Under the pieces are notes generated by a model that was not told where the DNA came from, did not search any database, and was given only the letters and a program-made list of their open reading frames with translations. The position numbers were made by a program, and so were the translations under genes. Of a stretch of DNA of 64,000 bases, positions 2,525 to 19,719 are shown in pieces. The stretch comes from a bacterium (GTDB lineage: Bacteria; Patescibacteriota; Patescibacteriia; Patescibacteriales; UBA12465). The DNA is taken from assembly GCA_035400585.1 (NCBI GenBank), contig DAOMZR010000002.1, positions 145,121-209,120 of the forward strand, given 5' to 3'. Every line of letters begins with the position of its first letter. Position 1 is the stretch's first letter.

Positions 2525-3466
2525 TTATTTTCTTCTTTTATCAAACATAACCAACAGAGAGCTAGCAATAAAAATAGAGCTATAAGTACCAACAAAAATT
2601 CCAATTGATAAAGCCAAGACAAAATCCATAATAGTTTTTCCGCCAAAAAATAAGATTGCAAGCAAAACTAGAAGGGTTGTAAAAGAAGTATTGATAGATC
2701 TTACTAAGGTTTGATTTATGCTTTTATCAATTGTGCCCACAAAAGAGTCATCGCTCTTTGGTAAATTTTCTCTAATTCTATCAAAAACGATAATAGTGTC
2801 ATTTACGCTATAGCCTAAAACAGTCAAAATAGCAGCTATAAAGGGGGTATTTATTTCAGTGCCATAAAATTTACCCAAGAAAGCAAAGACACCCAAAACA
2901 ATCAAAACATCATGAAACAAGGCAACTATGGCAGAAATGCCATAATTCCAAGAGGAAACTGGCTTAGAGACTTTTCTGAAAACAAAAGCAACATATAAAA
3001 TAATTAGAATCAAAACTATAGCAACGGTGTTAAAAGACTTACTTTTTAACTCCTTACCGATTGATGGTCCAACAGAATCAAAACGAAGTTCTTCAAAAAA
3101 AGTTTTAGCTTCTCCTTCATCGGTCTGATCAACGCTTGAACTATTCAAATCAAGAGCGTATTGATTTAGTCTTTCAAAAACTAAATCATGAGTACCATTG
3201 TCAATTTGTTTAAACTTAAGAATAAATGTTCCGTCTTCTGTCGGCTGAACAGATAAACTGCTTAAATTTAAATCATTCAATTTGTCCCTGATTTCAAACG
3301 CGCTAGGACTATTTTCTGAAAATTTTACTTCCATCAAACTGCCACCTGTGAAATCTATACCAAAATTAAAACCCCAAAGAAAAATAAAAACCATTGAGGT
3401 CGCCATCAATAAGGCAGATAAAGATAGCCAAATTTTTCTATTTTTTACAACTTTTAAATTCACCAT
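2525..3466 (-). CDS. secF: Protein translocase subunit SecF
   Basis: The 313-aa ORF has FGIDFTGGSLMEVKF and C-terminal TM helices characteristic of SecF. It lies directly downstream of secD. Confidence 0.85.
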   Translation of the reverse strand: MVNLKVVKNRKIWLSLSALLMATSMVFIFLWGFNFGIDFTGGSLMEVKFSENSPSAFEIRDKLNDLNLSSLSVQPTEDGTFILKFKQIDNGTHDLVFERLNQYALDLNSSSVDQTDEGEAKTFFEELRFDSVGPSIGKELKSKSFNTVAIVLILIILYVAFVFRKVSKPVSSWNYGISAIVALFHDVLIVLGVFAFLGKFYGTEINTPFIAAILTVLGYSVNDTIIVFDRIRENLPKSDDSFVGTIDKSINQTLVRSINTSFTTLLVLLAILFFGGKTIMDFVLALSIGIFVGTYSSIFIASSLLVMFDKRRK

Positions 3467-3482
3467 ATTGTTAAAATATTAA

Positions 3483-5417
3483 TTAATTTTTATCTTTTAT
3501 TTTAACGCCAAACAAGAATCCCATTTTTTCCATCTTTTTTCCCAAGAAAACCAACAAAAAGCTTCTGGTTATTACTATAGCGCTAAACATTGAAATTGAA
3601 ACACCAATGAATAAGGTTGTTCCGAATCCTTTTAAAACACCGGTTCCAAAGCTCATTAAAACCAAACACATTAGCAAAGTAGAAAAATTTCCATCTCTAA
3701 TCGAAGGCCAAGCACGTCTAGTTCCCTCGTCGACCGCATCCCTTAAACTTCTTCCCGATCTTACCTCTTCCTTAATTCTTTCAAATATTAAAACATTGGC
3801 ATCAACAGCCATTCCAATTGATAAAATAAAACCAGCAACACCGGCTAAAGTAAGAGTAACTGAATTTAATCCATAAACAAACAAAACAACTCCGATAGCG
3901 ACAAACAATATAGTAAGAGGAAAATCTAGTATTTTTAATTCATCAAAAGCCATCAAAATTAAAGCTACAAAAAGCAATCCAAAAGTCAAAGAAAAAGCTA
4001 AAGGCAAAGCTTTAAAAATGGCCAAAACACTTAAACCATAAATAATAAGAGAAAATACTGATGATAAACCAAAAAATCTATAAAATATCAACATGAACAA
4101 GGCCACTAAGATAATACCTATAATTCCAGCCTCTAAACTGTCAACAATAGATTGATGTCCTAAGGTAGCTCCCACTGTTTTTTGATTAATAAGTTCTATC
4201 GGAACTGGTAGAGCGCCAGCCTTCAATCTTTGCACCAACTCTTTGGCTTCATCAATAGTAAAATTACCACTAATAACTGCTTTTCCACCGGAAATTTTTT
4301 CATTAACATTAGGAACACTAATTGGATAATCATCTAAATAAATAGCTACTGGTCGACCAACATTTCTTTCTGTTATTTGTTCAAACAATTGTGAACCTTC
4401 TTCATCAAACTCCAAAGAAACTTCCGGTCGATTGTCATTAGGATTAAATTGCAAGACAGCTCTTTTCAGATTTTTTCCAGTTAATTCAGTATTCTTCCAG
4501 TTTTCTGACATACTTTTCAAATAATCTTCTGTCATTTTAATCAAAGCTATTTCTCGAACCTTGTATTCTTGTAATTTGGATTCTTCACCCATTCTTTTGT
4601 CTTCCAGTTTTAAAACTTTAATAAAGTTTTCATTTTCAAAAACACTAGAAATTTGGCCAACAGATAAATCTTTTACTAAATTATAGTTTTCTGGATCATT
4701 TTCGTTTATCCAGCCCAAATCGCCATTATTTTCTGTACCAGGAGAATTTGGATCATCAGAAACTTTAAGAGGGGTATTGTTGGCAATGGCTAATTGAGCA
4801 AAATCATTACCTTCATTTATTTTTTGTAATATTTCATCCATTTTAGTTTGAAGGCCTTGATTGTAATTATTCATCAAACTTAAAGATTGTTCGTCAATGC
4901 TAATATTTTCAGTATCTTGCTCTTTAAATTCCAATTTAGGAGTTTCGCCAATTTCCTTAATAGCATCATCTACATTTTTAATTCCAGCCAATTCAACTAT
5001 AATTCGATAATCATTATCTATGGTCTTGTTAATTTGAATTACCGGCTCACTAACACCAAAAGTATTCACCCTTCTTTCAATAACATCCCTAACGCCATCT
5101 AGTAAATCGTCTTTATCGGCATCGCTAATATTAGAAACATCGGCCTGATAAATTAATTGAGAGCCGCCTTGAAGATCCAATCCTAATCTGAATTGATTTT
5201 CTTTAATTTTTGGCAAAACAATAGTATTGCTAGTTTTTTCTGCTAGCCATGAAGAAAAAGCATTATACTTATAGTCTCCAATTTGGATAGCAACCAATAA
5301 AAAGAAAACGACCACTAAACCGAATATCCAGCCATTCTTTTTTTTGCTGGAAAAAAAACTTATTTTTTGTTTAGACATAATATATAGATAACTTATTATT
5401 TTAAAATCTAAAAACAA
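3483..5417 (-). CDS. secD: Protein translocase subunit SecD with a parvulin-like insert in the periplasmic P1 head
   Basis: The 644-aa ORF has LGLDLQGGSQLIYQAD, a VELAG..LEFK base, ..ISGG.AVISG..ALPVPIE and six C-terminal TM helices. Residues about 170-275 read INEGNDFAQLA..NGDLGWI..ENFIKVLKL, which resembles PpiC. Confidence 0.85.
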   Translation of the reverse strand: MFLDFKIISYLYIMSKQKISFFSSKKKNGWIFGLVVVFFLLVAIQIGDYKYNAFSSWLAEKTSNTIVLPKIKENQFRLGLDLQGGSQLIYQADVSNISDADKDDLLDGVRDVIERRVNTFGVSEPVIQINKTIDNDYRIIVELAGIKNVDDAIKEIGETPKLEFKEQDTENISIDEQSLSLMNNYNQGLQTKMDEILQKINEGNDFAQLAIANNTPLKVSDDPNSPGTENNGDLGWINENDPENYNLVKDLSVGQISSVFENENFIKVLKLEDKRMGEESKLQEYKVREIALIKMTEDYLKSMSENWKNTELTGKNLKRAVLQFNPNDNRPEVSLEFDEEGSQLFEQITERNVGRPVAIYLDDYPISVPNVNEKISGGKAVISGNFTIDEAKELVQRLKAGALPVPIELINQKTVGATLGHQSIVDSLEAGIIGIILVALFMLIFYRFFGLSSVFSLIIYGLSVLAIFKALPLAFSLTFGLLFVALILMAFDELKILDFPLTILFVAIGVVLFVYGLNSVTLTLAGVAGFILSIGMAVDANVLIFERIKEEVRSGRSLRDAVDEGTRRAWPSIRDGNFSTLLMCLVLMSFGTGVLKGFGTTLFIGVSISMFSAIVITRSFLLVFLGKKMEKMGFLFGVKIKDKN

Positions 5418-5570
5418 GACTAAAAACAGGTTAAAACACCTGTCTTTCTAATATACTATATTAAAAGAAGATAAAAATCAAGGGTTTCCCTGGTTGTAAA
5501 AGTGGATAATTTGTGTTAAAATACAAAATGAAATTATATCTAAGATTTCATTAAAAACTAATAAAAAAAT

Positions 5571-6224: not shown

Positions 6225-7352
6225 TTATTTCAATTTAAAGGAGTTAATCATCATTCTAAAAATATTATAATAACTAGCCATTTTATTTTCTGGAAAACTA
6301 TAAACTATACTATAAACATTTTCTTTTTTATCATCGGTTAAATAAAATGAGTAAAAGTCAGAACTATAGACGCCAGACCAACCTTCTTTTTCTATAACTG
6401 ACAAAGAATCAGCCACTTCAAAGAATCTAGAAAAATACCAAGACTCTATATTTTTCTTATCTTCATTTTTTTCAACTAAAACTTGAATAAATGAACTATC
6501 ATCGATTAAGAAAATAACCGAGGTGCCATCGGACAGAGCTTTAATTTCAAATTTTTTAGGATAAAAAATATCATAAGAAAATGAACCGTTTGAATGCTTG
6601 TCAATGTTCGGATTGGTTGATATAGCCCCCTGACCAGCTGGATTGTATAAATTAGTAAGCTCTGTTAAATCATCATAACCATCGCTATCACTGTCTACAC
6701 TAATATTATTAGTGCCCAAAAGACTTTCCTCGTCATCGTTCAAACCGTCACCATCAGTATCTGAAAAAGAATCAAACATAATAACATCATCTTGATTGAT
6801 GTTTTCTTCAGTTGTTGTGTTGGTTTCATCGGAAGTGTCTGTATTAATTATATCACTTGAACTAGCAACGTCTGTTTCGTCAATAAAGGGCAACTCATCA
6901 ATTTCATTTTGCTCATTTGATTGTTCTTCTATAGTGTTTTCTTCCGAGATATTTTTGTTTTCCAGTTCTTCACTTACAATATTATTATTGGTTTTATTAA
7001 TGTTTGATAAAAAACTAAATGAAGGCATTTTCAGAGAAAAATTTTGAGGATCTTTAATATAAGAAAAAACTGCATAGGCCAAAAAGGCGACGATAATAAC
7101 ACCAAAAAAAACAATTAAAAAACCGATTTTTTTCCCTTGATGTTTTTTTTCTTGTTGATTTTTTTCTTCCAAAACTGATCCTGAAAAATTGTCTGCTGAA
7201 TCACTTTTTTTAACAGCTGTTTCGAACCTTCCTGACTTATAACCCTTTGGCATTCTGTGAACATTAAAAACAGGATTTTTAATTTGTTTTTTTTCAGAAT
7301 CAACTGAACCATCGCTAGAATTTTCCTTCTTTAAGTTCTTATCATCAATCAT
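6225..7352 (-). CDS. Membrane-anchored protein with an acidic region carrying thrombospondin type-3-like Ca-binding repeats
   Basis: The 375-aa ORF has a single TM (GFLIVFFGVIIVAFLAYAVF), an extracellular D/E-rich region with DTDGDGLNDDEE and DSDSDGYDD, and a C-terminal globular domain. It is a paralog of the adjacent 263-aa protein. Confidence 0.55.
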   Translation of the reverse strand: MIDDKNLKKENSSDGSVDSEKKQIKNPVFNVHRMPKGYKSGRFETAVKKSDSADNFSGSVLEEKNQQEKKHQGKKIGFLIVFFGVIIVAFLAYAVFSYIKDPQNFSLKMPSFSFLSNINKTNNNIVSEELENKNISEENTIEEQSNEQNEIDELPFIDETDVASSSDIINTDTSDETNTTTEENINQDDVIMFDSFSDTDGDGLNDDEESLLGTNNISVDSDSDGYDDLTELTNLYNPAGQGAISTNPNIDKHSNGSFSYDIFYPKKFEIKALSDGTSVIFLIDDSSFIQVLVEKNEDKKNIESWYFSRFFEVADSLSVIEKEGWSGVYSSDFYSFYLTDDKKENVYSIVYSFPENKMASYYNIFRMMINSFKLK

Positions 7353-7363
7353 AAATAATAAAA

Positions 7364-8155
7364 TTAAAGACTAAATTTTTCTACTAAATTTGAAAATTTT
7401 TGTTTAAACATCTCTAAATTTTTAAATAAAGAAGTATCTATAACGCCACCACCCAATGGATTGTAGCCACTGTTCATCTCTTGTCCATCAAGATAAGTGT
7501 CCCCGTCTGTGTCTTGGTTTAATGGATCGGTTCCAATTATCAATACTTCTTCAGAGTCGCTTAAACCATCACCATCAGAATCAGGATTATATAAATTGGT
7601 TTTGTAAGTGTATGTTTCGTCGTAATCACTAAGGCCATCGTTGTCGGAATCTAAGTTTTTTAAAACATCTTCTGGTGATGGTTCGTCGCCCATAATATCG
7701 TCACTACTCGTTGCTTCATTTTCATCTATTAAAATATTTTCGTCGACAACAGTTGAACCTTCTGGTTCTCGATTGTTGTTTTGTTCTTCATTTGTCTCAC
7801 TTTCTTCTTGATTAACATTTTGTTGATTTGTCTGTTCTAATGCTTGTTTGTTTTGCATTGATTTTGGCAGAAGAATCTGAGAATAAACAAAGTAAGCACC
7901 AGCGCCAATCAAGGCAATAACGATTATAAAAATAAACATTTTTTTCAAAATACCGCTGCTCTTTTTTTCATCATCATACAAAGATGAGTTGGAAATTTTT
8001 TCATTTTTCAAGCCGTTGCCTGAACTCATTGCTGGAGGTTGATTATTAATTTGATTTCTAAAATTTTGACCGATATTTTTACTAGCTGAATTTGGATCAG
8101 TGTCGGCAAAAATATCGTCAACTCCGTCCGATTTTTTTTGTAAATTGTCGAACAT
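7364..8155 (-). CDS. Membrane-anchored protein with thrombospondin type-3-like Ca-binding repeats
   Basis: The 263-aa ORF has a single TM (IFIIVIALIGAGAYFVY) followed by DSDNDGLSDYDE, DSDGDGLSDSEE and DTDGDTYLDGQE repeats of the form DxDxDGxxDxxE. Confidence 0.55.
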   Translation of the reverse strand: MFDNLQKKSDGVDDIFADTDPNSASKNIGQNFRNQINNQPPAMSSGNGLKNEKISNSSLYDDEKKSSGILKKMFIFIIVIALIGAGAYFVYSQILLPKSMQNKQALEQTNQQNVNQEESETNEEQNNNREPEGSTVVDENILIDENEATSSDDIMGDEPSPEDVLKNLDSDNDGLSDYDETYTYKTNLYNPDSDGDGLSDSEEVLIIGTDPLNQDTDGDTYLDGQEMNSGYNPLGGGVIDTSLFKNLEMFKQKFSNLVEKFSL

Positions 8156-8234
8156 AAAATTTTTATTAATTTTAACTATTTTTATTAATTAAATTATAGC
8201 ACAAAAGATGTTTATATAAAATAACTTATATAAA

Positions 8235-11200
8235 TTATTGAAAACACATATAAGAACCACCAGAATCGTAACAACCAAAATCAGCATAAACATGTGTGTC
8301 ACTGCTTATAGTAAAAGAACAATAAGGCTGAGAGCCAAAACATGGACCAGTCCAATTTTCAAAAACAGTAGGAGAATATGCTGAAGCTTCTAGGTTAATT
8401 GTTGAACCATTGTTGACAGTATATTCACACATAAAGTCGGTGCAATTTCCTTTATATGAACCATTTTCTTGTACTGAGACATTTGATCCATATTCATAAC
8501 CATTGATAAAAACAGTGAGTGTTCTAGGCATTGAAAGTGTCGTAAAATTAGCAACCAAACTACTGTAAGCAGTGCCGGCGCTGTTTATAGCATAGGCTCT
8601 AACATAATACATTGAACCAGGGGTTAGGCCGGTTATATTAGACGTAAACGCTCCAGTTCCACTACCACTAACAATTTTAGTGCCAGTGCTTGTTGTAGGC
8701 AAAGTACTAGTTTTAGAATAGACAACGCCTCTTTCTGTGACAGTTGCCCCACCATCACTGGTTACATTACCACCCGACACAGCTGATCCGGTAGTAATAC
8801 TGCTGGTCGGAGCAATGGTAACCGTAGGCAAAGTAACCGCGCTAACCCATTTAGCATACAAAGTTATATTAGATGTTTGATTATAAATGGTCGAAGAAGT
8901 ATATCGAGTACCAGTACCATTTATGCCAGTAAACCAATCACTAAACATGCTTCCACTTTTGGTTGGCGTTGGTAAAGTTCCAATGGCGGAATTATAAGTT
9001 ACAATCTTGCTACTTGGTAAAACACTTCCCCCATCAGCGTTAAAAGATATTGTATAAGTATTAGCTGTCCATTTAGCATACAAAGTCACGCTAGCTGTTC
9101 CCATCGTATAACTAGCTCCGTTAGAATAAATAACCGAGCCAGTAGAAGACGTTGCCCAACCAGCAAAAGAATAACCGGGCTTAACAAATTGATTAAGGGT
9201 CAAATTAGCACTAGCCCCACTAATTATAGATTGACTAGCCATAGTTCCAGTAGCTGAAGCGTCATTTTTATCAAAAATAACAGAGTAGGTTATTGGGGTC
9301 CATTTAGCATACAAAGTAACCGGACTAGTTGTCATGTCCCAAGTTCTAGCACTACTCATTGAATTTGTATAATATTGCGAACCCAGACCACCAGTCTGAT
9401 TGTAATAGCCACCGAAAGAATAACCACTTCTTACCGGAGAAATAGCTGTCGGCATAGCCGATCCATAAGTGGCAACAACACTGCCAGTTCCACTGGTTCC
9501 ACCCTGAGAATCTAAATTGACTGTACTTATGAAGGGCGTCCATTTAGCATAAAGTATTAATCCTGTGCTCGGTATTTGAATCACTGCATTTGGCAAATAA
9601 TTAGAACCAGTTCCATCGGTTTTTGTATTCCAACCGACAAAATTATATCCAGTTTTAACCAATCCACCCTGTCCAGCAATTGTTACATTGGTGCCAGTAT
9701 CTCCTGTTTGAGTTGCCGGAGCTGTCCCCCCAGTTTGACCGTTGCCATTGTAACTAACCGATGAAGTCGTTTTGGTTGTAAAAGGAAAAGTTGATCCATA
9801 AACCGTCCCGAAAGAACTAGTGATATAGGATTTAACTGAATATTCTATGCCAGGAAATAAATTAGACATAGTTAAGGAAAAAGATCCAGAACAAGAAGAA
9901 GAAACAACTTTTGTTTCCGAGACAAAATGACTAGAATCATTAGACCAATATATTAAACCGCACTCTGAAATAGATACATTGCTTGGATTTGAGATTGTCC
10001 CACCAGAAGTAGCCGATGAACTAGTTATATTACTTACATTGGTTGTTGATATACTAGGGGCAACTGGCAAAACAAAAGTTTTGGTATCGCTACTAACACC
10101 AACTCTATCTCCATAAGAATCTCTATTCATGGCAAAGGATTTAAAATAATAAGTCACTCCTGGAGTAAATTTGGAGACAGAAACGCCCTTGCTGAAAGTT
10201 CCAATAGCGTAAGGACTGTTGGCTAAAATACAATTATTAACGTTTAAACTACAAGCACCGATGTACGTTTCTAGAGATGAAGCTGAAGTGCTCCAAACAA
10301 AACCCATTGCTAAAATAGCACTACCAGAAACTAAATCACCGCCACCATTGTCTGACAAATATCCACTAAAATTAATATTTCCACTAGCCAAGGTTTGTTG
10401 ATTGACAGTTACAACCGGATAATCAGCTCTAGTTTTAAAACTTTTGGTTGCTCCGTAAGAAATGCCTGCCTGATTAACCGCATAAGCTCTATAATAATAT
10501 AGATAATTTCTAGTTAAATCGGAAAGTGTGTGTATGTAAGAAGAATTGTCGGATATAGATGCTTCATAGCTACAACCATTATTAGACGCACAAGAGGAAA
10601 CATTAGCAATGCTCAAATTTGAAGATGCTGGCGAGGTTACACATCCTCTACCGCCAACATAATTGCCACCAGCAGATATTATGCGCCCGTTGCATTTAAA
10701 AGAATTCGAGGTTACGTCGGAATGAGATACCGTTTCTACCTCCGGTTTAGTAAAAACACTAAAATTATGAGTACCCTCGCTAGACATTCCAAAGCTATTG
10801 GTAATTTTAGCTTTTATGGTTTTTGCCCCCAAAGAATTAGCTACGCCAGATAAAGTTTTATTAGCAGCGCTAAAAGTTAAAAAACTTGGTTTTTCAATTA
10901 TATCTACTGTAATATATTCGCCCGGCTTGCTAGAAGATATCTCACAACTATAATTATTATTTAGAGCCACCGAATTAGAGCAGTTGTTAAAAACTATACT
11001 TGGAACATCGGCTGTAAAAGTAATATTAAAATTAACTGAGGTTTGCGCTTGATGAGGGTCTTTGGCTGTAATTTTAAAACGATGAGTACCAACGTGGCTA
11101 GAATTAAAAACATTAGGAGTGTTTATCGAATATTTGTTTTTAATCACTAAGGAATAGCTCTCTTTATTAGCATCTAAAATAGATAAAACCATTACCAACT

Positions 11201-12980
11201 TATTGTTAAATAAAGCGCTTCCAGTAAATTCAACTAATTTATCGACGTCAGGTTTTATTTCCCAAGTATTTACGCAATTATTTGATAAGTCTAATTGACA
11301 AACTATTAATGTTTGTAATTTACTCTTGTCGTTTATAGAGATTGGAAAAGAGAAGTCCTGACCAGAACTAAGATTACTGCTGTAGTTTGAACTAACCTGA
11401 ACTGAAGGATTTTGATTAGCTATATATATCGGAAAATTTTTGATTGTTTCATATCCAGAAGAATTCTTAACTGAAACTCCAATAATATATCTTTTGTTTT
11501 TTTCCTGAACAGTAGGAGAGTCTATTGGTTGAGAATCACCGGCAATAGTAGATTTTAATAAAATTGTTTCATCAGAATTAGTTAATTCACGAGCTGGATA
11601 TTTGTTTGGCGTCCAACTGGACCAGTTCGATTCAGAGCAATCGGTTATAATTGTATTATCTGGGTAAAGCGGTTTTCCTGGTATGCAACCAGAAACAACC
11701 CAACTAAGTGCTTGATCTCTTGGATCTTTAGCTTTTATATATCCCTCGAAAGAAGTCCCACTATGACCAGTCATTAAGGCTTCTTCGAAATAGGGGTTAT
11801 TATATTGTGGTAATTCATCATCCACTGGAATGTATGGAGGATTAAAGTCATCAGTGTTTTCACCAGATGGCAAGGTAAAAGATTCACCCCAATATTCTGA
11901 TGATTCCATTGGAGAATAAATACTAGCCGATAAGCCCTTCGGATCACTTACATAAGAAAAAACTGAACTGTATTCTGGTAAAACAAAATTAGTATAATTA
12001 ACTGGCTTTTCAGTACTTAAAAACACCGCCTTGTCATTTTCCCAACAAGTTAGAAGATCAAAATTTGAATTTTCATCATAGCAAGAACTTATTCTATTAA
12101 TAGAGTCGGTAACACCGGAAACGCTAATTTGGTTTAAAAATGTTTGCTGCCAACTTGGCCAAGAAGAAATAGCCACATAAGGAACATAGGTTCCGGACGA
12201 TAAAATAGGGTAGTGACCATTTAAGTTTTTATAAGCTTCTAATTTTGTTTTGATTATTTTTAATTTTTCCAATCTTTCCACATCTCTAATCAGCATTGAT
12301 TTTGGACTATCACAAAAAAGATTGTTTGGACAATCAGAATCTAATAAACAAGCCGGGGTATTGACTGGTTCTTTATTATAGTCATCTTCTTTTATTATAC
12401 ATCTGTTTTTTTGGTATATTTTCCCAACAACATTTACTTCCGAAGAGTCATTTAACAGGTGAGCTGAATCCTGCCCAACATAACCGCCACAAATATAACC
12501 ACTGGGACAATCTGTTTCTGACTTACAAATTTTACTAGAAATACTACAATGACCAATTTTATCTTTTAAGTTAGTATTCAATTTCCAATTTTTCAAAATT
12601 TTTCCAAAAATATCGATGGTATTATCATCAGCTTCTTGGTTATAAGAAATTAAATAAATATTAAAATAGATTTTATTATTTTCTAAATCAATATTAGCGG
12701 CTGAAATATATACAGTTCTGCCATCTCGAATTGCCTTATAGCCATCAACTATTAAAGACTGCGGGGATCCAGTAAACCCTTGCATTTTATACCATTGTTG
12801 AATGTTATAATTTTCCGGGTTTGGAATGACACGAATAGCAATAGCATCTGGGTCGTTTTCACCCAAAGAAGAAACACTGTCCTCTGAACTTGGTGCGGCC
12901 AAAACAAAAAGAGGAAGTATTAAAAAAAATAATAATACAAAAAAGCTTTTAAAAAAATTTACTCTCATTTTTTTAAACAT
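8235..12980 (-). CDS. Giant secreted surface protein (1581 aa) with FN3/Ig-like domains and four or more C-terminal Listeria-Bacteroides (Flg_new) repeats
   Basis: It has an N-terminal signal peptide (FFVLLFFLILPLFVLAAPSS). Modules ending in LYAKWT recur four times (GYNFVGWNTKTDGTGSNY..LYAKWT, GYSFGGYYNQTGG..LYAKWT, GYSFAGWATSSTG..LYAKWT, ..LYAKWV), which matches the Flg_new/List_Bact repeat pattern. Confidence 0.7.
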   Translation of the reverse strand: MFKKMRVNFFKSFFVLLFFLILPLFVLAAPSSEDSVSSLGENDPDAIAIRVIPNPENYNIQQWYKMQGFTGSPQSLIVDGYKAIRDGRTVYISAANIDLENNKIYFNIYLISYNQEADDNTIDIFGKILKNWKLNTNLKDKIGHCSISSKICKSETDCPSGYICGGYVGQDSAHLLNDSSEVNVVGKIYQKNRCIIKEDDYNKEPVNTPACLLDSDCPNNLFCDSPKSMLIRDVERLEKLKIIKTKLEAYKNLNGHYPILSSGTYVPYVAISSWPSWQQTFLNQISVSGVTDSINRISSCYDENSNFDLLTCWENDKAVFLSTEKPVNYTNFVLPEYSSVFSYVSDPKGLSASIYSPMESSEYWGESFTLPSGENTDDFNPPYIPVDDELPQYNNPYFEEALMTGHSGTSFEGYIKAKDPRDQALSWVVSGCIPGKPLYPDNTIITDCSESNWSSWTPNKYPARELTNSDETILLKSTIAGDSQPIDSPTVQEKNKRYIIGVSVKNSSGYETIKNFPIYIANQNPSVQVSSNYSSNLSSGQDFSFPISINDKSKLQTLIVCQLDLSNNCVNTWEIKPDVDKLVEFTGSALFNNKLVMVLSILDANKESYSLVIKNKYSINTPNVFNSSHVGTHRFKITAKDPHQAQTSVNFNITFTADVPSIVFNNCSNSVALNNNYSCEISSSKPGEYITVDIIEKPSFLTFSAANKTLSGVANSLGAKTIKAKITNSFGMSSEGTHNFSVFTKPEVETVSHSDVTSNSFKCNGRIISAGGNYVGGRGCVTSPASSNLSIANVSSCASNNGCSYEASISDNSSYIHTLSDLTRNYLYYYRAYAVNQAGISYGATKSFKTRADYPVVTVNQQTLASGNINFSGYLSDNGGGDLVSGSAILAMGFVWSTSASSLETYIGACSLNVNNCILANSPYAIGTFSKGVSVSKFTPGVTYYFKSFAMNRDSYGDRVGVSSDTKTFVLPVAPSISTTNVSNITSSSATSGGTISNPSNVSISECGLIYWSNDSSHFVSETKVVSSSCSGSFSLTMSNLFPGIEYSVKSYITSSFGTVYGSTFPFTTKTTSSVSYNGNGQTGGTAPATQTGDTGTNVTIAGQGGLVKTGYNFVGWNTKTDGTGSNYLPNAVIQIPSTGLILYAKWTPFISTVNLDSQGGTSGTGSVVATYGSAMPTAISPVRSGYSFGGYYNQTGGLGSQYYTNSMSSARTWDMTTSPVTLYAKWTPITYSVIFDKNDASATGTMASQSIISGASANLTLNQFVKPGYSFAGWATSSTGSVIYSNGASYTMGTASVTLYAKWTANTYTISFNADGGSVLPSSKIVTYNSAIGTLPTPTKSGSMFSDWFTGINGTGTRYTSSTIYNQTSNITLYAKWVSAVTLPTVTIAPTSSITTGSAVSGGNVTSDGGATVTERGVVYSKTSTLPTTSTGTKIVSGSGTGAFTSNITGLTPGSMYYVRAYAINSAGTAYSSLVANFTTLSMPRTLTVFINGYEYGSNVSVQENGSYKGNCTDFMCEYTVNNGSTINLEASAYSPTVFENWTGPCFGSQPYCSFTISSDTHVYADFGCYDSGGSYMCFQ

Positions 12981-12987
12981 AAATTTA

Positions 12988-15900
12988 TTAAGATATTTTT
13001 ATTAAAGAAAAGTCATCAATATAAAAATCACTACCGAGAGCAACCGTATCGGCATAACTTAGAGTTATAGCAAATTCCATCATTTTAGTATAATCACTTC
13101 TTAGCCATAAAGACATTTTGTCATTATATTCAAAAGTTTGAAAATAAGTTTGCCAGTCAACATAGTTGCCAGCCAATATATTTTTAGAAACAACGCCGGT
13201 ATAGCATTTAGTTTGAGCTGGTGATTGAACACAACAATAATTAGCTTGTTCTGAGCAAGGATATCCTCTTCCGCTAGCACAAGGATTTTGTCCCTCAAGA
13301 GGTGTCGGACTGAGCGCTCCATTTAACCAGACAAATGGCGATCTCAGGGCTGTTGGAGAAGACATGGCCATACACTGGCTAGACCAGCCAGAAGAGGGGG
13401 AAATATTAACAGTTATTTCTCCAACAGAATTACCTTTATAGTTAAACTTAACTGCGTATTTTTCGTTTTGTTTAAAATTCAAAGACAAAAGATTATATTT
13501 TAAACTAGCCCAAACAACTCTATTGGTATTCATCCAACAAAAACTCTCTCCTTCTTGATATATGGCTGGGGCTGTTTTTTTACAATCATCAGCATTGCTA
13601 AATCTGCAAGTTTTGTTTACATTGTCCCAAGTGCAACCAGACATGCTACTACAAAGAGCCTGGCCACATTTGCCAGGATAAACGTGTCCCGATTCTTGTT
13701 TAATCAGAACGCTTTTGTTTCCGGAGTTACTAGTCAAATTGCTAACCCCAATTGAAGAATATGTTTTCAGGGATTTTGACCATCCCGGTGGCAAACCGCT
13801 AATATCAACCGATTCAAAATCAATATTGTCAAATATATACTTAAACAAACTCACCGTTGGATCATTAAAATAAACAAAAACCTCTGATGATTTTTCACTT
13901 TCTTCTCCAGCTGGATTGATGGAACTTATAACAAAATAGAAAGTATCGTTTTGAGTTCCGGCCAAGCTGATAGTCACCTCAGTTGAATTATTTTGTGTTA
14001 AAATAGAATTACCATAAACACCAGAAACAGCACCCCTATAAACTTTATATTTAGAAACTTCACTGGCAGGAGCAGTCCAAGAAACTTTTATTAAACGATC
14101 TTCGTGAGAAAGTATTTCAACTTTTGGACTGGTTGGTTTATCGGAAATATTTGAACTAGTCGGGGTAACAGAAACAGTAGAAGAAAAACCAGTTTCAGCT
14201 AAATTTTCACTTAAAGCGGTTATTTTTATTTCATAAGAAATATAATTGGTAAGGTTGCTCAAAGTATAACTACATTTATATTTGTTATCTTCAATAGTGC
14301 AAACATTTGCTGGATCTACAACTTCTTCTTTATAAACACTCTCTTCGTTTGTTTTATAGTAAATTTTATACTTATCAACTAAAGAAGTTTCTGACTCCCA
14401 GATAATTTCAACCTCCCCTCCGTCTCCCGTGTCGTTAGATGAGATAGAATTAACAAATCTAGGAATTCTTTCTTTAAAGAAATAAGCTTCCTTCAAAAAG
14501 TTAGATATACAAAGTCCGCCCGCAGGGCAATCACCATCATTAGAACAAATTCTGCTAGGCAAATTACTACAAGTTCTTATTGGGCTTTCTCCTTTAATAA
14601 TTGCTAAGTTACTTAAAAACGCTGGAAGATCATCACTGGTTGTGTCTTCTCCAGAATCACGACAGTAGTAAAATTCATAATTATAATAACCAAAGGAACT
14701 GTCGGAATCTCTCCAAGGAGACCAAGTTCCATCATTTTTAACTGGCGGCCAAGGATTTTTACAAACAAAAACGTAAGCCATAACATTGCCAGCTGTGTTG
14801 TTGCCATCTAAAATAGTATTGGTATCGTCCATTTTTACTTTAGCAGCTATTGTAGTTTGAGCATCGCTAACATTTTCTTGAACAGCTATTAATCTTTTAT
14901 CACCATTTGTCGACCAAGAAACAACTTCGTCCTTAAATCCCAAAACGTCTTGAGATCCAATTATCCAATCCCAAGTCCAAGAATAGCCTAAGACTGGTTT
15001 TAAAATCTGATTATCTTTTGAAAGAGCATAAGAATAATATGCTTTATCATAATCTTTCTCAGAATCAAAAGTACTGCTATTTGAATCGTTGTCATTCTCT
15101 TTTATACTGTTTGTATTTTCAGGAAATAAATACGAATCTGGTGAAATCAAAACTTTATCAACGCTACATATTCCCCCTTGATCGGCTGGAGTATTCATAG
15201 TCGTAAATGAGAAAACGTGAGAGTTGACAAAATTTAAATTATTAAATCTTAAACGATTATCATCTCCCTCAACCCAGCTGGTATCGGAAATTTTATACCC
15301 ACGTCCGTTCATTCCAACTCCTTGATAGTTAAGTATACCGCTGGTACTGTCAAGCGCGGAATCACCTTTTACAACCACAAAATATTTTGCGCTTTCTTTT
15401 AATAAAGATTTTGGCTGAAAAATAGCCACCGTTGTTCCATCCGGATTATTTCTAAAATCAGTTGTGCCTAAAACAGAACAATAAATCTTGTCGCTAGAGG
15501 TTATATCCCCTACAACTCCAGCCAAGACATCAATTTTAAATACTCTGCTCAAATAATATAAAGGTTTTTTTATTAAATTTTTTAATTTTTCAAAAATAGT
15601 TAAATCGTTTTTGTAGCTTATAAAATATGTACCAGAAGAACAAACTGAGGAGTTTTCTTCTAATAAAAGAATGTTGTCTACAAAAGACATGTTATCCATT
15701 TTTTGATCAAAAGTAATAGAGATTGCTGCATTATGGCAAACTCCTTGTTGTTCGTTTGTCGGAGATGTTTCCGTAATGTTCGGCCTAGCCTGACAACAAG
15801 TATCAAAACCACAACCAACATTTTCTGGGTCTAAACCAGCGCTTGTACAGTCGGTGTCAGAACCACAACCACAACACAAACCTCTTTCTTGTCCAGAGCA

Positions 15901-18900
15901 ACTACCTTTGTCTCTATAACAAGAAAGTTTTTCGTTTATAGCTGAACACTGATCTGTGGCTGCATCAGGATCACAGCAACAAAAACCACAATCAGGGGCA
16001 GCACCCAATAAACCTGTATCAGTTAAACAATCTAATCTATTGCAAACATCGGAACAAACAGTTGTGGTGGTTGAGATATTATTAGCACAACTTTCGCCAA
16101 AACCAGCCGAAGAATCTTTACACGAACTGGTGCATATATCTAATTTCAGATATTTGCCGGTTGTGTTTGGATAATTAATGGCACAAAGATTATTGGTTGT
16201 ACTACAATCATATCTTTTACAATAGCCAACACTGCCACTAGTTTCGCCCACTTCAAACCTATCGCCAGAAGAACAAACAGAATATTTAGCATCCCAACAA
16301 CAACTATTATTAGAGACACACTCTGTAGCTGATGTTAGTTGTTTACAATTTTCATTACAAGATTTATCACAAGATTCTTTTGTTTTATAATCGCCAACAA
16401 CAGAAATGTTGTTGGAGCAAACTGTTGGATCCGAAGAGTCACAACTATAATAAGGACAATAGCCAATACTCGGAGAGCTACTTCCCCAAACAGAACTATC
16501 ACTAGCACCACCACGACAAACTCCCTCTACCTGATCCCAACAACAAGTCGTGTTATGTGCTTTACAAGAATCTTCACCTAAAGATGTACAATCCAAACAA
16601 GCACCAGTTGGATATTGTGTATTAACTTCACAATATTTTCCACTAGTACCAACACAATTACAAGCAAGATCATTTACCTGTGGTTGATTTTCGTCTATAT
16701 TACAACCACTGCATACGCCAAAATTTGTATTTTCAGTTCCAGGATTAGCACTAATTCCACAAGAATAAGAACAAACCAAAGGAGAGCAACAGGCAGGATT
16801 TCCGGTGCTAGTATTTTTATCTATTTCACAACAACATTGACAGGCGGGTTTGTCCGCCTTGATACATTTGTCATTAATACAGTTAGATCCACTAGGACAT
16901 AGCTTAGGAGAGGAACAAGTTCCGTCAGTAGAACAAACTGAATCACCAGAACAGATAGAACAAGTTGACGGTGATTCAATAGAAGCTACATCAATACATT
17001 TTCCACTAGAAATCATCGTCCATTGAACTCCATCAATTTTTGGACATAATGTATTTACAGATATTTCATAAAAGCTTTTTTCGCCAACCCCTTCTAGAGA
17101 ATATTTTTTACAAACAGCAATTTTGTTTTCCACACCAACGCCTTCTCCTAAATCATAGGAAACTGTTTTTGAACATGTCTGACCAGTAACAACACATTTA
17201 TCCGATTCCGCTAAATACTGGCAACTTTGACCATTGGTGCCACAATAAGAAAAAGAGGAGCAGTCTTGTTTGCAAACACCGACCTCAATTAAATTTTCTC
17301 CATTATATGAAGAACAAAGACCAGGGGAGTTTGGACAAACATAGCCCGTTGGACAAAAATTATAACTAGCACAACTAAAAATGTTGTCGTCTTCTTCTAT
17401 GTCAGTTGAATCAAAGCCAGTGTCAAATCCCCATTCAAAAACAGAGCTTTCTGGAGAACCGCTCAAACAATCATTAACATTAACGACACAAGCCCCTGGG
17501 TTAGTGGTTTGAGAACCACAACAAATTTCTCCGCTTAAACAATCTGAATTACTGGAACAAGATTTAACATTAAAATTTAAGCCATTACCAAGTAGCCCTC
17601 CTCGAGAAATTTTAACCGGACCAGTAATAGAATCTAAGGCCACTAGAGACTCTGATTTATCAGCTCCATCCTCAGAAACAACATTCAAATTGTTACTTGT
17701 TTTATTAAAATTAAAAATCGCTTTTGTGTCTTTTCCGCTTTCCTTAAAATATTCTCCCCAAAAAGAAACTTTTGTTGTGCCAGCTGGTCCGGAGTAAGGA
17801 CTAATTTTGCACAAACTTGGAAGAAGTGGGTAAGTGGAACTAGCCACAAAAGAATCTGTTGAAAGGATATCTTCCCATGTTCCTATTTTAAGTTTCAATT
17901 TATAATCAGAATTATTATAATCAATATTTTCTGGAACTTTTACTATTATTTGATCATCTTTCCAAACGGAATGCAAACAAACTAAAGGAAAATCAAAGCT
18001 AGCATTTATATCGCTACCATTATAAAAATAAACTTGACTATCACCTCTGCTGGCCCCAAACCCTGAACCATAAATACTAACATACTGACCGGACTTGCCA
18101 ATACTTGGCTCAAAAAAAGATATAGATGGTGCTTTTGGTGGTTCTGGTAATTTTTTAAAATCGATAAAATTACTTGGAACACTTGATGTTAGTTTTTTAG
18201 CAAAAGTACTAGTGTCTCCAGTTTTTAAATTTGGGGCAATTATTGTACCCGAAAGATCATTATTAAAAACATTAGGAGTAAAGCCAGAAACATTATTAGA
18301 ATAATTACCAAAATAAGCTTTACTATCATTAAGATTAACTCCATAATATAAAACTGAATCATTGGCCTTGGCTTCGGCTGGATTTATTCTACATAGCCCG
18401 GGGCGACTGATCGAATTTATTTTTATTGGAACAACCTGAGGACCATTTTCATCATCGCTACGATCTCTTTTTCCAGAAGCAGTAACAACCTCAACTGCAA
18501 CATTATCTGAAGGATTAAACCCGGTTGGAACCGCTACTATTATTTGAGTATTAGACCAAGTGTTTCCACAATAAGAATTAACCGAAGAAGGCATTATTCC
18601 GGCAACAAGAGAGTTGTTTGCTTGATTAATAAAATTAACACCAGAAAGAATTTCATTGTATTCGTCAAAATTATAGCCTTTAATTGTTACAAAATTTCCA
18701 GTGGCAGCATTAGGTGTTGTTATGTCACAAATACCGCTGGAACAATCATCATCTTGAGCACAAACTTTATTAATGTCATCTTGGCAAAAACCACCCAAAG
18801 GATTTATTCCTGTTACAACTGGACTGCCAGCACAAACACAAGACTCGCAAGTTAATCCATGACTTGGATTACAAATGCCTTCGCTTTGACAAGCTCCTGT

Positions 18901-19719
18901 TAATCCATCACCACAAGGTTCTCCTAATTCAGAAAAATTTTCTTCTTCTTCGCTAGGAGATTCGCAGGTGCAAGTATTAGCATTACAAACTAAATTTGGG
19001 TTTGAACAAGTTGGCTCAGCCTCATTATCACAAACACCGTTTGTTGTTTGACCGCAAGGATCACCAACCCCTTCTTGTACACATTTACATTCGTTATTAC
19101 AAAAAAGATTAGAATTACAAAGAGTGTTATCAGGAAGACAAGAATTTCCCAAACCAGAACTACACCACGAACCCTCACTTCCGGGTAAACAACTAGATCC
19201 AACACAAACTCCCCATTTATTATCAGAACAAGTTGAAATTCCTCCACAACCACAAGATTTGATGGAACCACTTTCACAATAAGTACTGCTGTTTATTCCC
19301 GTTGCATCACCTAACTGATTAAAAATTAAAGTTGTTATTCCCCAGGCAGACAAAATAATAGCCAAACCTATGGCACCCGATTTTAATATTCCCTTGGCTT
19401 TCGTTATTTTTTCTTCATTACCCTCCGACCTCATCCAAACAAAACCGCCGTAGATAACTATAGCTACGGCAATTATTCCTAAAATACTAAGAGAAACATT
19501 TATTATTTGTGAGGCTATTGTTCTGGGATCTCTGTCTGATAGATTTAATTCATTACCAACAAAACCTTGACCAAAATTATCTCCTTCTGAAGCCAAAACA
19601 TTAAAACTAAAAACACCAAAAAAAAGAAATAATAAAAGCAGAAAAAACGAAATTTTTCTTGAAATTTTTTTTCTATCAAACATAAAAAAATAAGACAATA
19701 TTTCTAAGATCTCTAGCAA
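12988..19719 (-). CDS. Giant cysteine-rich cell-surface protein (2243 aa) with an N-terminal membrane anchor, EGF-like Cys-rich arrays and FN3 domains
   Basis: It is a continuous 6.7-kb ORF. The N-terminus has TM helices (FFLLLLFLFFGVFSF; ILGIIAVAIVIYGGFVW; GAIGLAIILSAWGITTLIF), followed by long C-x-C-rich tracts (..CNCVGTSGKYCE..CLDCTSLGEDSC..) and C-terminal FN3-like modules (KYKIYYKTNEES.., KVSWTAPASEVSKYKVY). Confidence 0.7.
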   Translation of the reverse strand: MLEILEILSYFFMFDRKKISRKISFFLLLLFLFFGVFSFNVLASEGDNFGQGFVGNELNLSDRDPRTIASQIINVSLSILGIIAVAIVIYGGFVWMRSEGNEEKITKAKGILKSGAIGLAIILSAWGITTLIFNQLGDATGINSSTYCESGSIKSCGCGGISTCSDNKWGVCVGSSCLPGSEGSWCSSGLGNSCLPDNTLCNSNLFCNNECKCVQEGVGDPCGQTTNGVCDNEAEPTCSNPNLVCNANTCTCESPSEEEENFSELGEPCGDGLTGACQSEGICNPSHGLTCESCVCAGSPVVTGINPLGGFCQDDINKVCAQDDDCSSGICDITTPNAATGNFVTIKGYNFDEYNEILSGVNFINQANNSLVAGIMPSSVNSYCGNTWSNTQIIVAVPTGFNPSDNVAVEVVTASGKRDRSDDENGPQVVPIKINSISRPGLCRINPAEAKANDSVLYYGVNLNDSKAYFGNYSNNVSGFTPNVFNNDLSGTIIAPNLKTGDTSTFAKKLTSSVPSNFIDFKKLPEPPKAPSISFFEPSIGKSGQYVSIYGSGFGASRGDSQVYFYNGSDINASFDFPLVCLHSVWKDDQIIVKVPENIDYNNSDYKLKLKIGTWEDILSTDSFVASSTYPLLPSLCKISPYSGPAGTTKVSFWGEYFKESGKDTKAIFNFNKTSNNLNVVSEDGADKSESLVALDSITGPVKISRGGLLGNGLNFNVKSCSSNSDCLSGEICCGSQTTNPGACVVNVNDCLSGSPESSVFEWGFDTGFDSTDIEEDDNIFSCASYNFCPTGYVCPNSPGLCSSYNGENLIEVGVCKQDCSSFSYCGTNGQSCQYLAESDKCVVTGQTCSKTVSYDLGEGVGVENKIAVCKKYSLEGVGEKSFYEISVNTLCPKIDGVQWTMISSGKCIDVASIESPSTCSICSGDSVCSTDGTCSSPKLCPSGSNCINDKCIKADKPACQCCCEIDKNTSTGNPACCSPLVCSYSCGISANPGTENTNFGVCSGCNIDENQPQVNDLACNCVGTSGKYCEVNTQYPTGACLDCTSLGEDSCKAHNTTCCWDQVEGVCRGGASDSSVWGSSSPSIGYCPYYSCDSSDPTVCSNNISVVGDYKTKESCDKSCNENCKQLTSATECVSNNSCCWDAKYSVCSSGDRFEVGETSGSVGYCKRYDCSTTNNLCAINYPNTTGKYLKLDICTSSCKDSSAGFGESCANNISTTTTVCSDVCNRLDCLTDTGLLGAAPDCGFCCCDPDAATDQCSAINEKLSCYRDKGSCSGQERGLCCGCGSDTDCTSAGLDPENVGCGFDTCCQARPNITETSPTNEQQGVCHNAAISITFDQKMDNMSFVDNILLLEENSSVCSSGTYFISYKNDLTIFEKLKNLIKKPLYYLSRVFKIDVLAGVVGDITSSDKIYCSVLGTTDFRNNPDGTTVAIFQPKSLLKESAKYFVVVKGDSALDSTSGILNYQGVGMNGRGYKISDTSWVEGDDNRLRFNNLNFVNSHVFSFTTMNTPADQGGICSVDKVLISPDSYLFPENTNSIKENDNDSNSSTFDSEKDYDKAYYSYALSKDNQILKPVLGYSWTWDWIIGSQDVLGFKDEVVSWSTNGDKRLIAVQENVSDAQTTIAAKVKMDDTNTILDGNNTAGNVMAYVFVCKNPWPPVKNDGTWSPWRDSDSSFGYYNYEFYYCRDSGEDTTSDDLPAFLSNLAIIKGESPIRTCSNLPSRICSNDGDCPAGGLCISNFLKEAYFFKERIPRFVNSISSNDTGDGGEVEIIWESETSLVDKYKIYYKTNEESVYKEEVVDPANVCTIEDNKYKCSYTLSNLTNYISYEIKITALSENLAETGFSSTVSVTPTSSNISDKPTSPKVEILSHEDRLIKVSWTAPASEVSKYKVYRGAVSGVYGNSILTQNNSTEVTISLAGTQNDTFYFVISSINPAGEESEKSSEVFVYFNDPTVSLFKYIFDNIDFESVDISGLPPGWSKSLKTYSSIGVSNLTSNSGNKSVLIKQESGHVYPGKCGQALCSSMSGCTWDNVNKTCRFSNADDCKKTAPAIYQEGESFCWMNTNRVVWASLKYNLLSLNFKQNEKYAVKFNYKGNSVGEITVNISPSSGWSSQCMAMSSPTALRSPFVWLNGALSPTPLEGQNPCASGRGYPCSEQANYCCVQSPAQTKCYTGVVSKNILAGNYVDWQTYFQTFEYNDKMSLWLRSDYTKMMEFAITLSYADTVALGSDFYIDDFSLIKIS

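Follow-up and report, generated by a model that had tools for sequence, protein, structure and literature searches.

The analysis concerned a 64,000-nucleotide stretch of contig DAOMZR010000002.1 (GenBank assembly GCA_035400585.1, positions 145,121 to 209,120), hereafter the window, which derives from a bacterium of the Patescibacteriota and has a G+C content of approximately 30 %. Its minus strand carries a secD gene (3483..5378) in which a parvulin-like module is inserted between the base and the intact head of the periplasmic P1 domain. The coding sequence is taken to begin with the ATG at 5378 and encodes 631 aa followed by a stop codon. The mechanically called open reading frame (ORF; 3483..5417, minus strand) is longer, comprising 644 aa from a TTG located 13 codons upstream of the ATG (5378-5417), and its translation is identical to the peptides quoted in a first-pass annotation made from the sequence of the window. 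This ATG (5378) is used as the start in all public gene calls, among them the one for the identical protein P0001. Residue numbers below refer to the 631-aa protein, unless the 644-aa ORF is named; adding 13 converts the former to the latter. No obvious Shine-Dalgarno sequence was found before either the TTG or the ATG start of secD. A promoter-like pair (TTGATT...TATAGT) is located approximately 70-100 nt upstream of the ATG (5440-5480, minus strand).

The host protein is a complete SecD. It passed the NCBIfam secD equivalog model TIGR01129 with 363.4 bits (cut-off of 244.4), and hmmscan of the whole protein against Pfam identified SecD_1st, SecDF_P1_head and SecD_SecF_C. The first transmembrane helix (TM1) is followed by the N-terminal part of the P1 base (PF21760 SecD_1st, residues 95-155, 4914..5096, minus strand; 57.7 bits, E 8e-16), which ends in an invariant 'LEFKE' sequence; residues 60-152 align with residues 30-116 of Thermus thermophilus SecDF in phmmer. 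The C-terminal RND-type transmembrane bundle (residues 405-611, 3546..4166, minus strand) was delineated by PF02355 and MMPL matches and by the helices of an AlphaFold2 (AF2) model, and its TM4 motif 'GMAVDANVLIFER', located at residue 522, contains the essential Asp. The secF gene (2525..3466, minus strand; PF02355 with 195.1 bits, plus Sec_GG) is located immediately downstream in the same orientation. Judging from this set of features, the SecD is presumably functional.

The anatomy of the insert was established from an alignment of 71 close SecD homologues, which also served for the comparison of homologue classes described below. The whole lineage-specific insert covers residues 155-292 (4503..4916, minus strand; approximately 138 aa) and consists of a long helix, a parvulin-like body, a trailing strand and a short helix. 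Its borders are the invariant 'LEFKE', the last strand of SecD_1st, and the equally invariant 'WKNTELTG', the first strand of the head. The first-pass annotation had placed the module where the P1 head normally sits, and this placement was wrong, because the head is present directly downstream and well conserved. The head (PF22599 SecDF_P1_head, residues 295-392, or 308-405 of the 644-aa ORF; 4203..4496, minus strand) was matched with 102.8 bits (E 1.3e-29), and with a mean pairwise identity of 76 % it is among the best-conserved parts of SecD. Residues 298-446 align with residues 159-307 of T. thermophilus SecDF in phmmer. In line with this, the full-length AF2 model, with a predicted local distance difference test (pLDDT) score of 80.9, returned the SecDF structures 5XAN, 5YHF and 3AQP at E ~1e-21 in Foldseek searches, and the isolated P1 domain 3AQO was also matched, with approximately 110 extra alignment columns. 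The possibility that the insert had replaced the P1 head was thus rejected. An assembly chimera or artefact was rejected as well, as the identical 631-aa protein P0001 was found on 15 independent public contigs and orthologues were found in at least 24 species representatives.

The parvulin (PpiC-type peptidylprolyl isomerase, PPIase) homology covers residues 158-261 of the insert (4596..4907, minus strand) and comprises helices alpha1 and alpha2, the beta2 strand 'ENNGDLGW', helix alpha4 and the beta3-beta4 hairpin 'NFIKVLKLEDK'. The interval 4593-4910, for which the first-pass annotation had proposed a PpiC-type domain, corresponds to residues 170-275 of the 644-aa ORF. In hmmscan of this ORF, both Rotamase_3 (PF13616; residues 171-274, 37.6 bits against a cut-off of 22.5, E 3.6e-9) and Rotamase (PF00639; residues 187-273, 35.2 bits against a cut-off of 21.7) scored above their gathering cut-offs, and the scores rose to 41.4 and 38.7 bits, respectively, when the insert was searched alone. 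A profile built from 28 orthologous inserts matched SurA (E 8e-11, both P1 and P2), PpiD (2KGJ, 1.5e-8) and PrsA (1ZK6, 6.7e-8) in the PDB. The best PDB match of the single sequence was the parvulin-like domain of Escherichia coli PpiD (2KGJ), and the region is most similar to the non-catalytic PpiD and SurA-P1 type. A comparison by hhalign with the canonical second parvulin domains found in some related SecDs gave a probability of 97.6 % (E 3.6e-12). Given the Pfam scores, the PDB profile matches and the hhalign probability, the similarity to parvulins is far beyond chance, and the proposal that a genuine SecD contains a parvulin-like region within its periplasmic P1 domain was borne out. The window insert is linked to the canonical second module type by profile-profile comparison only: a narrow hidden Markov model of the canonical second domains matched neither the insert nor any other ORF of the window. 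The isolated insert model returned no parvulin in a Foldseek search of the PDB (best E 0.14), and none of the Pfam families SurA_N, SurA_N_2, SurA_N_3 and Trigger_C matched the SecD at E <= 1.

The insert was predicted with confidence both within the full-length AF2 model (pLDDT 83-95) and when modelled alone (pLDDT 88.5, predicted TM-score of 0.77). The model contains a long helix (163-188), a short helix (193-200) followed by an extended loop, the 'GDLGW' strand (220-224), a helix at 229-235, two long strands (252-263, 'NFIKVLKLEDK', and 270-280, 'QEYKVREIALI') and a short helix at 284-290. From alpha1 onward, these elements follow one another as they do in a parvulin. What is missing is the N-terminal beta1 strand with the first catalytic histidine, and the Pfam profiles are covered only from position 15/16. 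The colinearity with E. coli PpiC that had been suggested on first reading therefore holds from helix alpha1 onward and does not extend to beta1.

Catalytic and proline-pocket positions were mapped through HMMER and hhalign alignments and counted in 40 single-module sequences. We used Pin1 numbering, in which we take the relevant residues to be His59, His157, Leu122, Met130 and Phe134. The equivalent of His157, the histidine of the 'GYHII' motif, is Lys254, since in the 'NFIKV' alignment F corresponds to G, I to Y and K to H. The first-pass annotation was correct in that the catalytic histidine is absent, and was inaccurate about the residue in its place, for which its alignment implied Phe. 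In the family this position is occupied by 13 different residues, with His in one of the 40 sequences. The equivalent of His59 lacks an N-terminal counterpart and is found on the trailing strand as Glu276; among the family members, Glu or Gln predominates at this position and His does not occur (0/40). In the proline pocket, Leu122 is retained within 'GDLGW', and Met130 and Phe134 are replaced by Asp and Asn. The module consequently lacks the combination of a dual-histidine motif and a hydrophobic proline pocket. This residue pattern is that of non-catalytic parvulin domains such as the one in PpiD and argues against canonical isomerase activity; at the level of sequence, the PPIase-like part is almost certainly devoid of a canonical active site in this lineage, and a chaperone-type rather than an isomerase module, as had been proposed, is plausible.

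It could still be considered that the module is an active, non-canonical prolyl isomerase, in which different residues catalyse the cis/trans isomerisation of emerging secretory proteins. The Pfam PPIase models do score above their cut-offs, the proteins are named 'peptidylprolyl isomerase' by the NCBI Prokaryotic Genome Annotation Pipeline (PGAP), and the double-histidine motif of Pin1 is not strictly required for catalysis in mutational studies. The variability of the His157-equivalent position and the Asp and Asn in the pocket speak against such activity, as does the identity of the closest solved relative in the single-sequence search, the PpiD parvulin domain, which according to the published literature has no PPIase activity. 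Moreover, in those relatives that require catalysis, a canonical parvulin of its own appears to be present beside the module. We regard an active isomerase as improbable.

The element following the parvulin-like body is the trailing beta-strand 'QEYKVREIALI' (residues 270-280; 4539..4571, minus strand), a proposed stand-in for the missing beta1. In the confident AF2 model, strands 252-263 and 270-280 are long, consecutive and separated by a six-residue loop, and the trailing strand pairs with beta4. The strand is conserved as 'EYKVR.I.L.K', with Arg in 33 of the 40 single-module sequences, and HMMER aligns it with beta1 of SurA P2 ('TEVHARHILL'). In the tandem relatives described below, the corresponding strand reads 'EYxVSHILIK' ('EYEVSHILIK' in P0056). 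In canonical parvulins, beta1 is antiparallel to beta4 and lies next to it, so that a strand returning from beta4 is the simplest candidate to fill the beta1 slot. We infer by this reasoning that the trailing strand may fill that slot, which would give a circularly permuted parvulin fold.

Close SecD homologues in related lineages fall into three classes at exactly this insertion site. Proteins of class (a), 510-566 aa in length, have no module and carry a low-complexity linker of 28-82 aa. Class (b) proteins (590-645 aa), which include the SecD of the window, possess one degenerate module with the trailing strand; this class also holds further-decayed versions without a Pfam match (P0079, P0082 and P0088). 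In class (c) proteins (683-744 aa), the degenerate module is followed by a canonical His-His parvulin ('IKASHLLI...GDLGWF...FGYHLIYK') and then by a trailing strand that often contains His. The second module of class (c) matches structures of PEB4, PrsA and Pin1 type with E-values down to 3e-17, and would add true isomerase activity. The tandem-module SecDs include P0056, P0071, P0102 and P0121 (loci L035/L036, gene at 3313-5397). Their order of elements, body-beta1-body-beta1, resembles a register-shifted copy of SurA P1-P2. In assembly GCA_000397945.1, which encodes one tandem-type protein, secA, secD and secF are contiguous.

The full single-module insert was identified in 24 species representatives in a scan of one genome per GTDB species, for which a narrower alignment of the insert was used. 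Those of their record titles that are informative point to Patescibacteria or Falkowbacteria. The closest named relatives of the window belong to Candidatus Falkowbacteria and to metagenome-assembled genomes labelled 'Patescibacteria group', which places the organism in the candidate phyla radiation. Many records of carriers (loci L002, L003, L006, L007 and others) are titled 'uncultured Gammaproteobacteria bacterium', the tandem-type protein P0102 is labelled Actinobacteria, and the partial protein P0299 is labelled Nitrospirota. These titles probably reflect mislabelled or mis-binned records rather than occurrences outside the candidate phyla radiation. A common gene neighbourhood, consisting of giant surface proteins, a TSP3-repeat protein, a divergent clpP, secD, secF and Wzy_C, is found in class (a) and class (b). 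Because of this shared neighbourhood, the genes of the two classes are orthologues that differ by a domain insertion or deletion and are not paralogues. No stand-alone parvulin gene was found within +/-10 kb of secD in the insert-less relatives.

The nearest non-SecD relatives of the module are two-parvulin proteins of the SurA type. Among 68 of the best representatives at 50 % identity, 38 carry SurA_N_3 and 11 carry SecD_1st. The tandem insert aligns with SurA proteins at 30-35 % identity over approximately 76-80 % of its length, and this alignment points to a SurA/PpiD-like origin of the module. In a neighbour-joining tree of the SecD core, which was rough, midpoint-rooted and indicative only, the class (b) clade of the window was monophyletic, and decayed and insert-less forms were scattered among the insert-bearing ones. 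Judging from this scatter, the insertion seems to be old and to have decayed or been lost repeatedly.

The evidence assembled here is best accounted for by a SecD with a degenerate parvulin module at the junction of the P1 base and head, which would act as a non-catalytic binding/holdase or hand-over site for secretory proteins. We estimate the probability of this reading at roughly 0.6. In this model, the SecD of Patescibacteria would have gained a SurA/PpiD-like parvulin module in the loop linking the static P1 base to the mobile P1 head, and of a formerly tandem arrangement the organism of the window would have only the degenerate first module. Of the parvulin fold, this module would have preserved the helices, the 'GDLGW' strand and the hairpin of beta3 and beta4; the N-terminal beta1, the two catalytic histidines and two of the three residues of the proline pocket would have been lost, with the conserved strand after beta4 probably filling the beta1 slot of a permuted fold. 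By SecD topology, the module is located outside the cytoplasmic membrane. It would have no isomerase activity and would provide unfolded secretory chains with an additional surface for binding or holdase action, or would serve as a hand-over station, which is the role that PpiD and the P1 domain of SurA play in trans. We infer such a role as the most likely one because of the insertion at the P1 base/head junction, the contact of the head cavity with pre-proteins and the cross-linking of a mycoplasmal PPIase to SecD. The P1 head has a cavity that binds emerging pre-proteins, and the swing of the head is central to the working model of SecDF (PMC5974789). The surface parvulin PPIase Mpn444 of Mycoplasma cross-links to SecD (bioRxiv 10.1101/2024.09.05.611430), and PpiD contacts SecD in E. 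coli and Vibrio.

Several observations weigh against a binding or hand-over role. Compared with the remainder of SecD, the module evolves much more rapidly (mean pairwise identity of 44 % versus 72-78 %), and it is further decayed or lost in related lineages, from which it follows that it is dispensable for SecD function in the long term. The role of PpiD's own parvulin domain has itself been questioned in the literature. Regarding the permuted fold, placing the trailing strand before the body in silico brought no gain for the window sequence (41.8 versus 41.4 bits); the same permutation of the tandem relative P0056 raised the Rotamase_3 score by 5.5 bits and extended the coverage to the beta1 region. 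The low identity of the insert, the loss of catalytic and pocket residues, the class (b) versions without a Pfam match, the low-complexity linkers that occupy the site in insert-less orthologues, and the interspersion of degenerate and insert-less forms in the tree, suggestive of repeated loss, would all be expected if the module were a decaying remnant of a once-functional PPIase insertion, serving now as a folded linker in a length-tolerant loop and binding no substrate. However, the module contains nearly invariant motifs, namely DF..LA, ENDGDLGW (with W in 39/40), the Gly before beta3 and EYKVR.I, which are maintained across approximately 35 diverse sequences of the main clade and are indicative of purifying selection. 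Together with the compact and confidently predicted fold, these motifs are not the signature of a neutral linker, and the linker of the sister lineages is of low complexity. A mere relic or spacer thus seems rather unlikely to us.

The site of insertion would also suit a docking or regulatory module that does not bind substrates, and instead contacts another envelope component, such as SecYEG, YidC, the cell wall or the pilus machinery, or controls how the P1 head swings. The P1 base and head, whose relative motion is central to the SecDF model, are connected by the chain at two places, one of which is precisely where the insert lies, and the P1 domain of SurA is regulatory towards its own chaperone core. 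The neighbourhood, however, holds only secF, clpP and cell-surface genes, and in orthologues the module was lost without a visible change of synteny, which makes this explanation very improbable. An extension of the non-catalytic holdase model is that the circularly permuted parvulin constitutes a 'motor-mounted holdase', which, being spliced into the connection from base to head, would be shifted with respect to the SecY exit by the proton-driven swing of the head. We consider this version unlikely. If it were true, substrate capture and chaperone hand-over would be mechanically coupled in one polypeptide, and the series of SecDs with none, one or two modules would be a record of the translocon of minimal-genome bacteria taking up a PpiD/SurA-like function and later losing it again.

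A second lineage-specific insertion, without a counterpart in T. thermophilus SecDF, was observed at residues 447-489 of the same protein (3912-4040, minus strand). It consists of an extra hydrophobic stretch of approximately 44 aa ('LPLAFSLTFGLLFVALILMAFDELKILDFPLTILFVAIGVVLFVYGL'), which AF2 models as two helices and which would add a transmembrane hairpin after the canonical TM3, immediately ahead of the canonical, Asp-carrying TM4. The hairpin is present in 61 of the 71 related Patescibacteria SecDs, irrespective of their parvulin class. Upstream of the divergent clpP, the minus strand carries a run of cell-surface genes (6225-19719), which includes a 375-aa protein without a Pfam match, a 263-aa TSP3-repeat protein and two giant ORFs of 1581 aa and 2243 aa. 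The 1581-aa product contains Flg_new repeats according to the Joint Genome Institute (JGI) annotation. The surface block with clpP and the secD-secF-Wzy_C genes show synteny with distant Patescibacteria, whose giant proteins contain T4SS_pilin and TIG domains.

The identity of these proteins as SecD is easily overlooked. PGAP names P0001 (HPV65655.1, HNV12371.1) and its relatives 'peptidylprolyl isomerase', and one relative 'MMPL family transporter', whereas JGI names such proteins 'protein-export membrane protein SecD'. The inserted domain appears to drive the PGAP product name and hide the SecD identity, and the NCBI name is misleading. Full-text literature searches returned no description of a SecD-parvulin fusion, and the joining of a translocon subunit with a chaperone-type module is apparently undescribed. 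The SecD and parvulin families are both well known; the novelty lies in their covalent combination, in the probable permutation and in the series of orthologues with none, one or two modules. The fusion bears on the questions of how SecDF hands over its substrates to extracytoplasmic chaperones and what purpose is served by dead parvulins such as PpiD and SurA P1. The natural fusion into the P1 domain, which grips the substrate, is conserved in dozens of Patescibacteria species, with variants of no, one and two modules, and offers 'Rosetta-stone' evidence that SecD and a dead parvulin work side by side on the same substrate. SecDF alone would then be a compact system for the structural dissection of this cooperation.

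Compared with known systems, the SecD of the window shares TM1, the P1 base, the P1 head, the transmembrane bundle with the Asp motif and the downstream secF with the SecDF motors of T. thermophilus (3AQP/5YHF) and Deinococcus radiodurans (5XAN) and with E. coli SecD. It differs from them by the parvulin-like module of approximately 138 aa between base and head and by the hairpin of approximately 44 aa between TM3 and TM4. With E. coli PpiD (2KGJ), the module has in common the 'G(G)D(L/M)GW' strand, the absence of His at the 'GxH' position (Leu in PpiD, Lys in the SecD module) and an extracytoplasmic location at the Sec translocon. PpiD, in contrast, is a membrane protein of its own with a single pass, and its parvulin domain lies within a SurA-like chaperone domain, whereas the SecD module has no SurA_N-like domain, is a covalent part of SecD and lacks the N-terminal beta1. 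The tandem SecD relatives are collinear with the P1-P2 region of SurA (1M5Y; P1 inactive, P2 active), with a degenerate first and a catalytic-type second module. However, SurA is a soluble periplasmic protein of diderms with N- and C-terminal chaperone segments, and the window protein holds only the P1-like module, inside SecD, in a lineage that is generally considered to have no outer membrane. The Gram-positive foldase PrsA and the mycoplasmal surface PPIases Mpn444/Mpn436 likewise place parvulin domains on the outer face of the cytoplasmic membrane, where they act on freshly translocated proteins; these lipoproteins are proteins in their own right and possess active sites and chaperone domains, unlike the SecD module, which is fused to the translocon subunit and has lost its catalytic residues.

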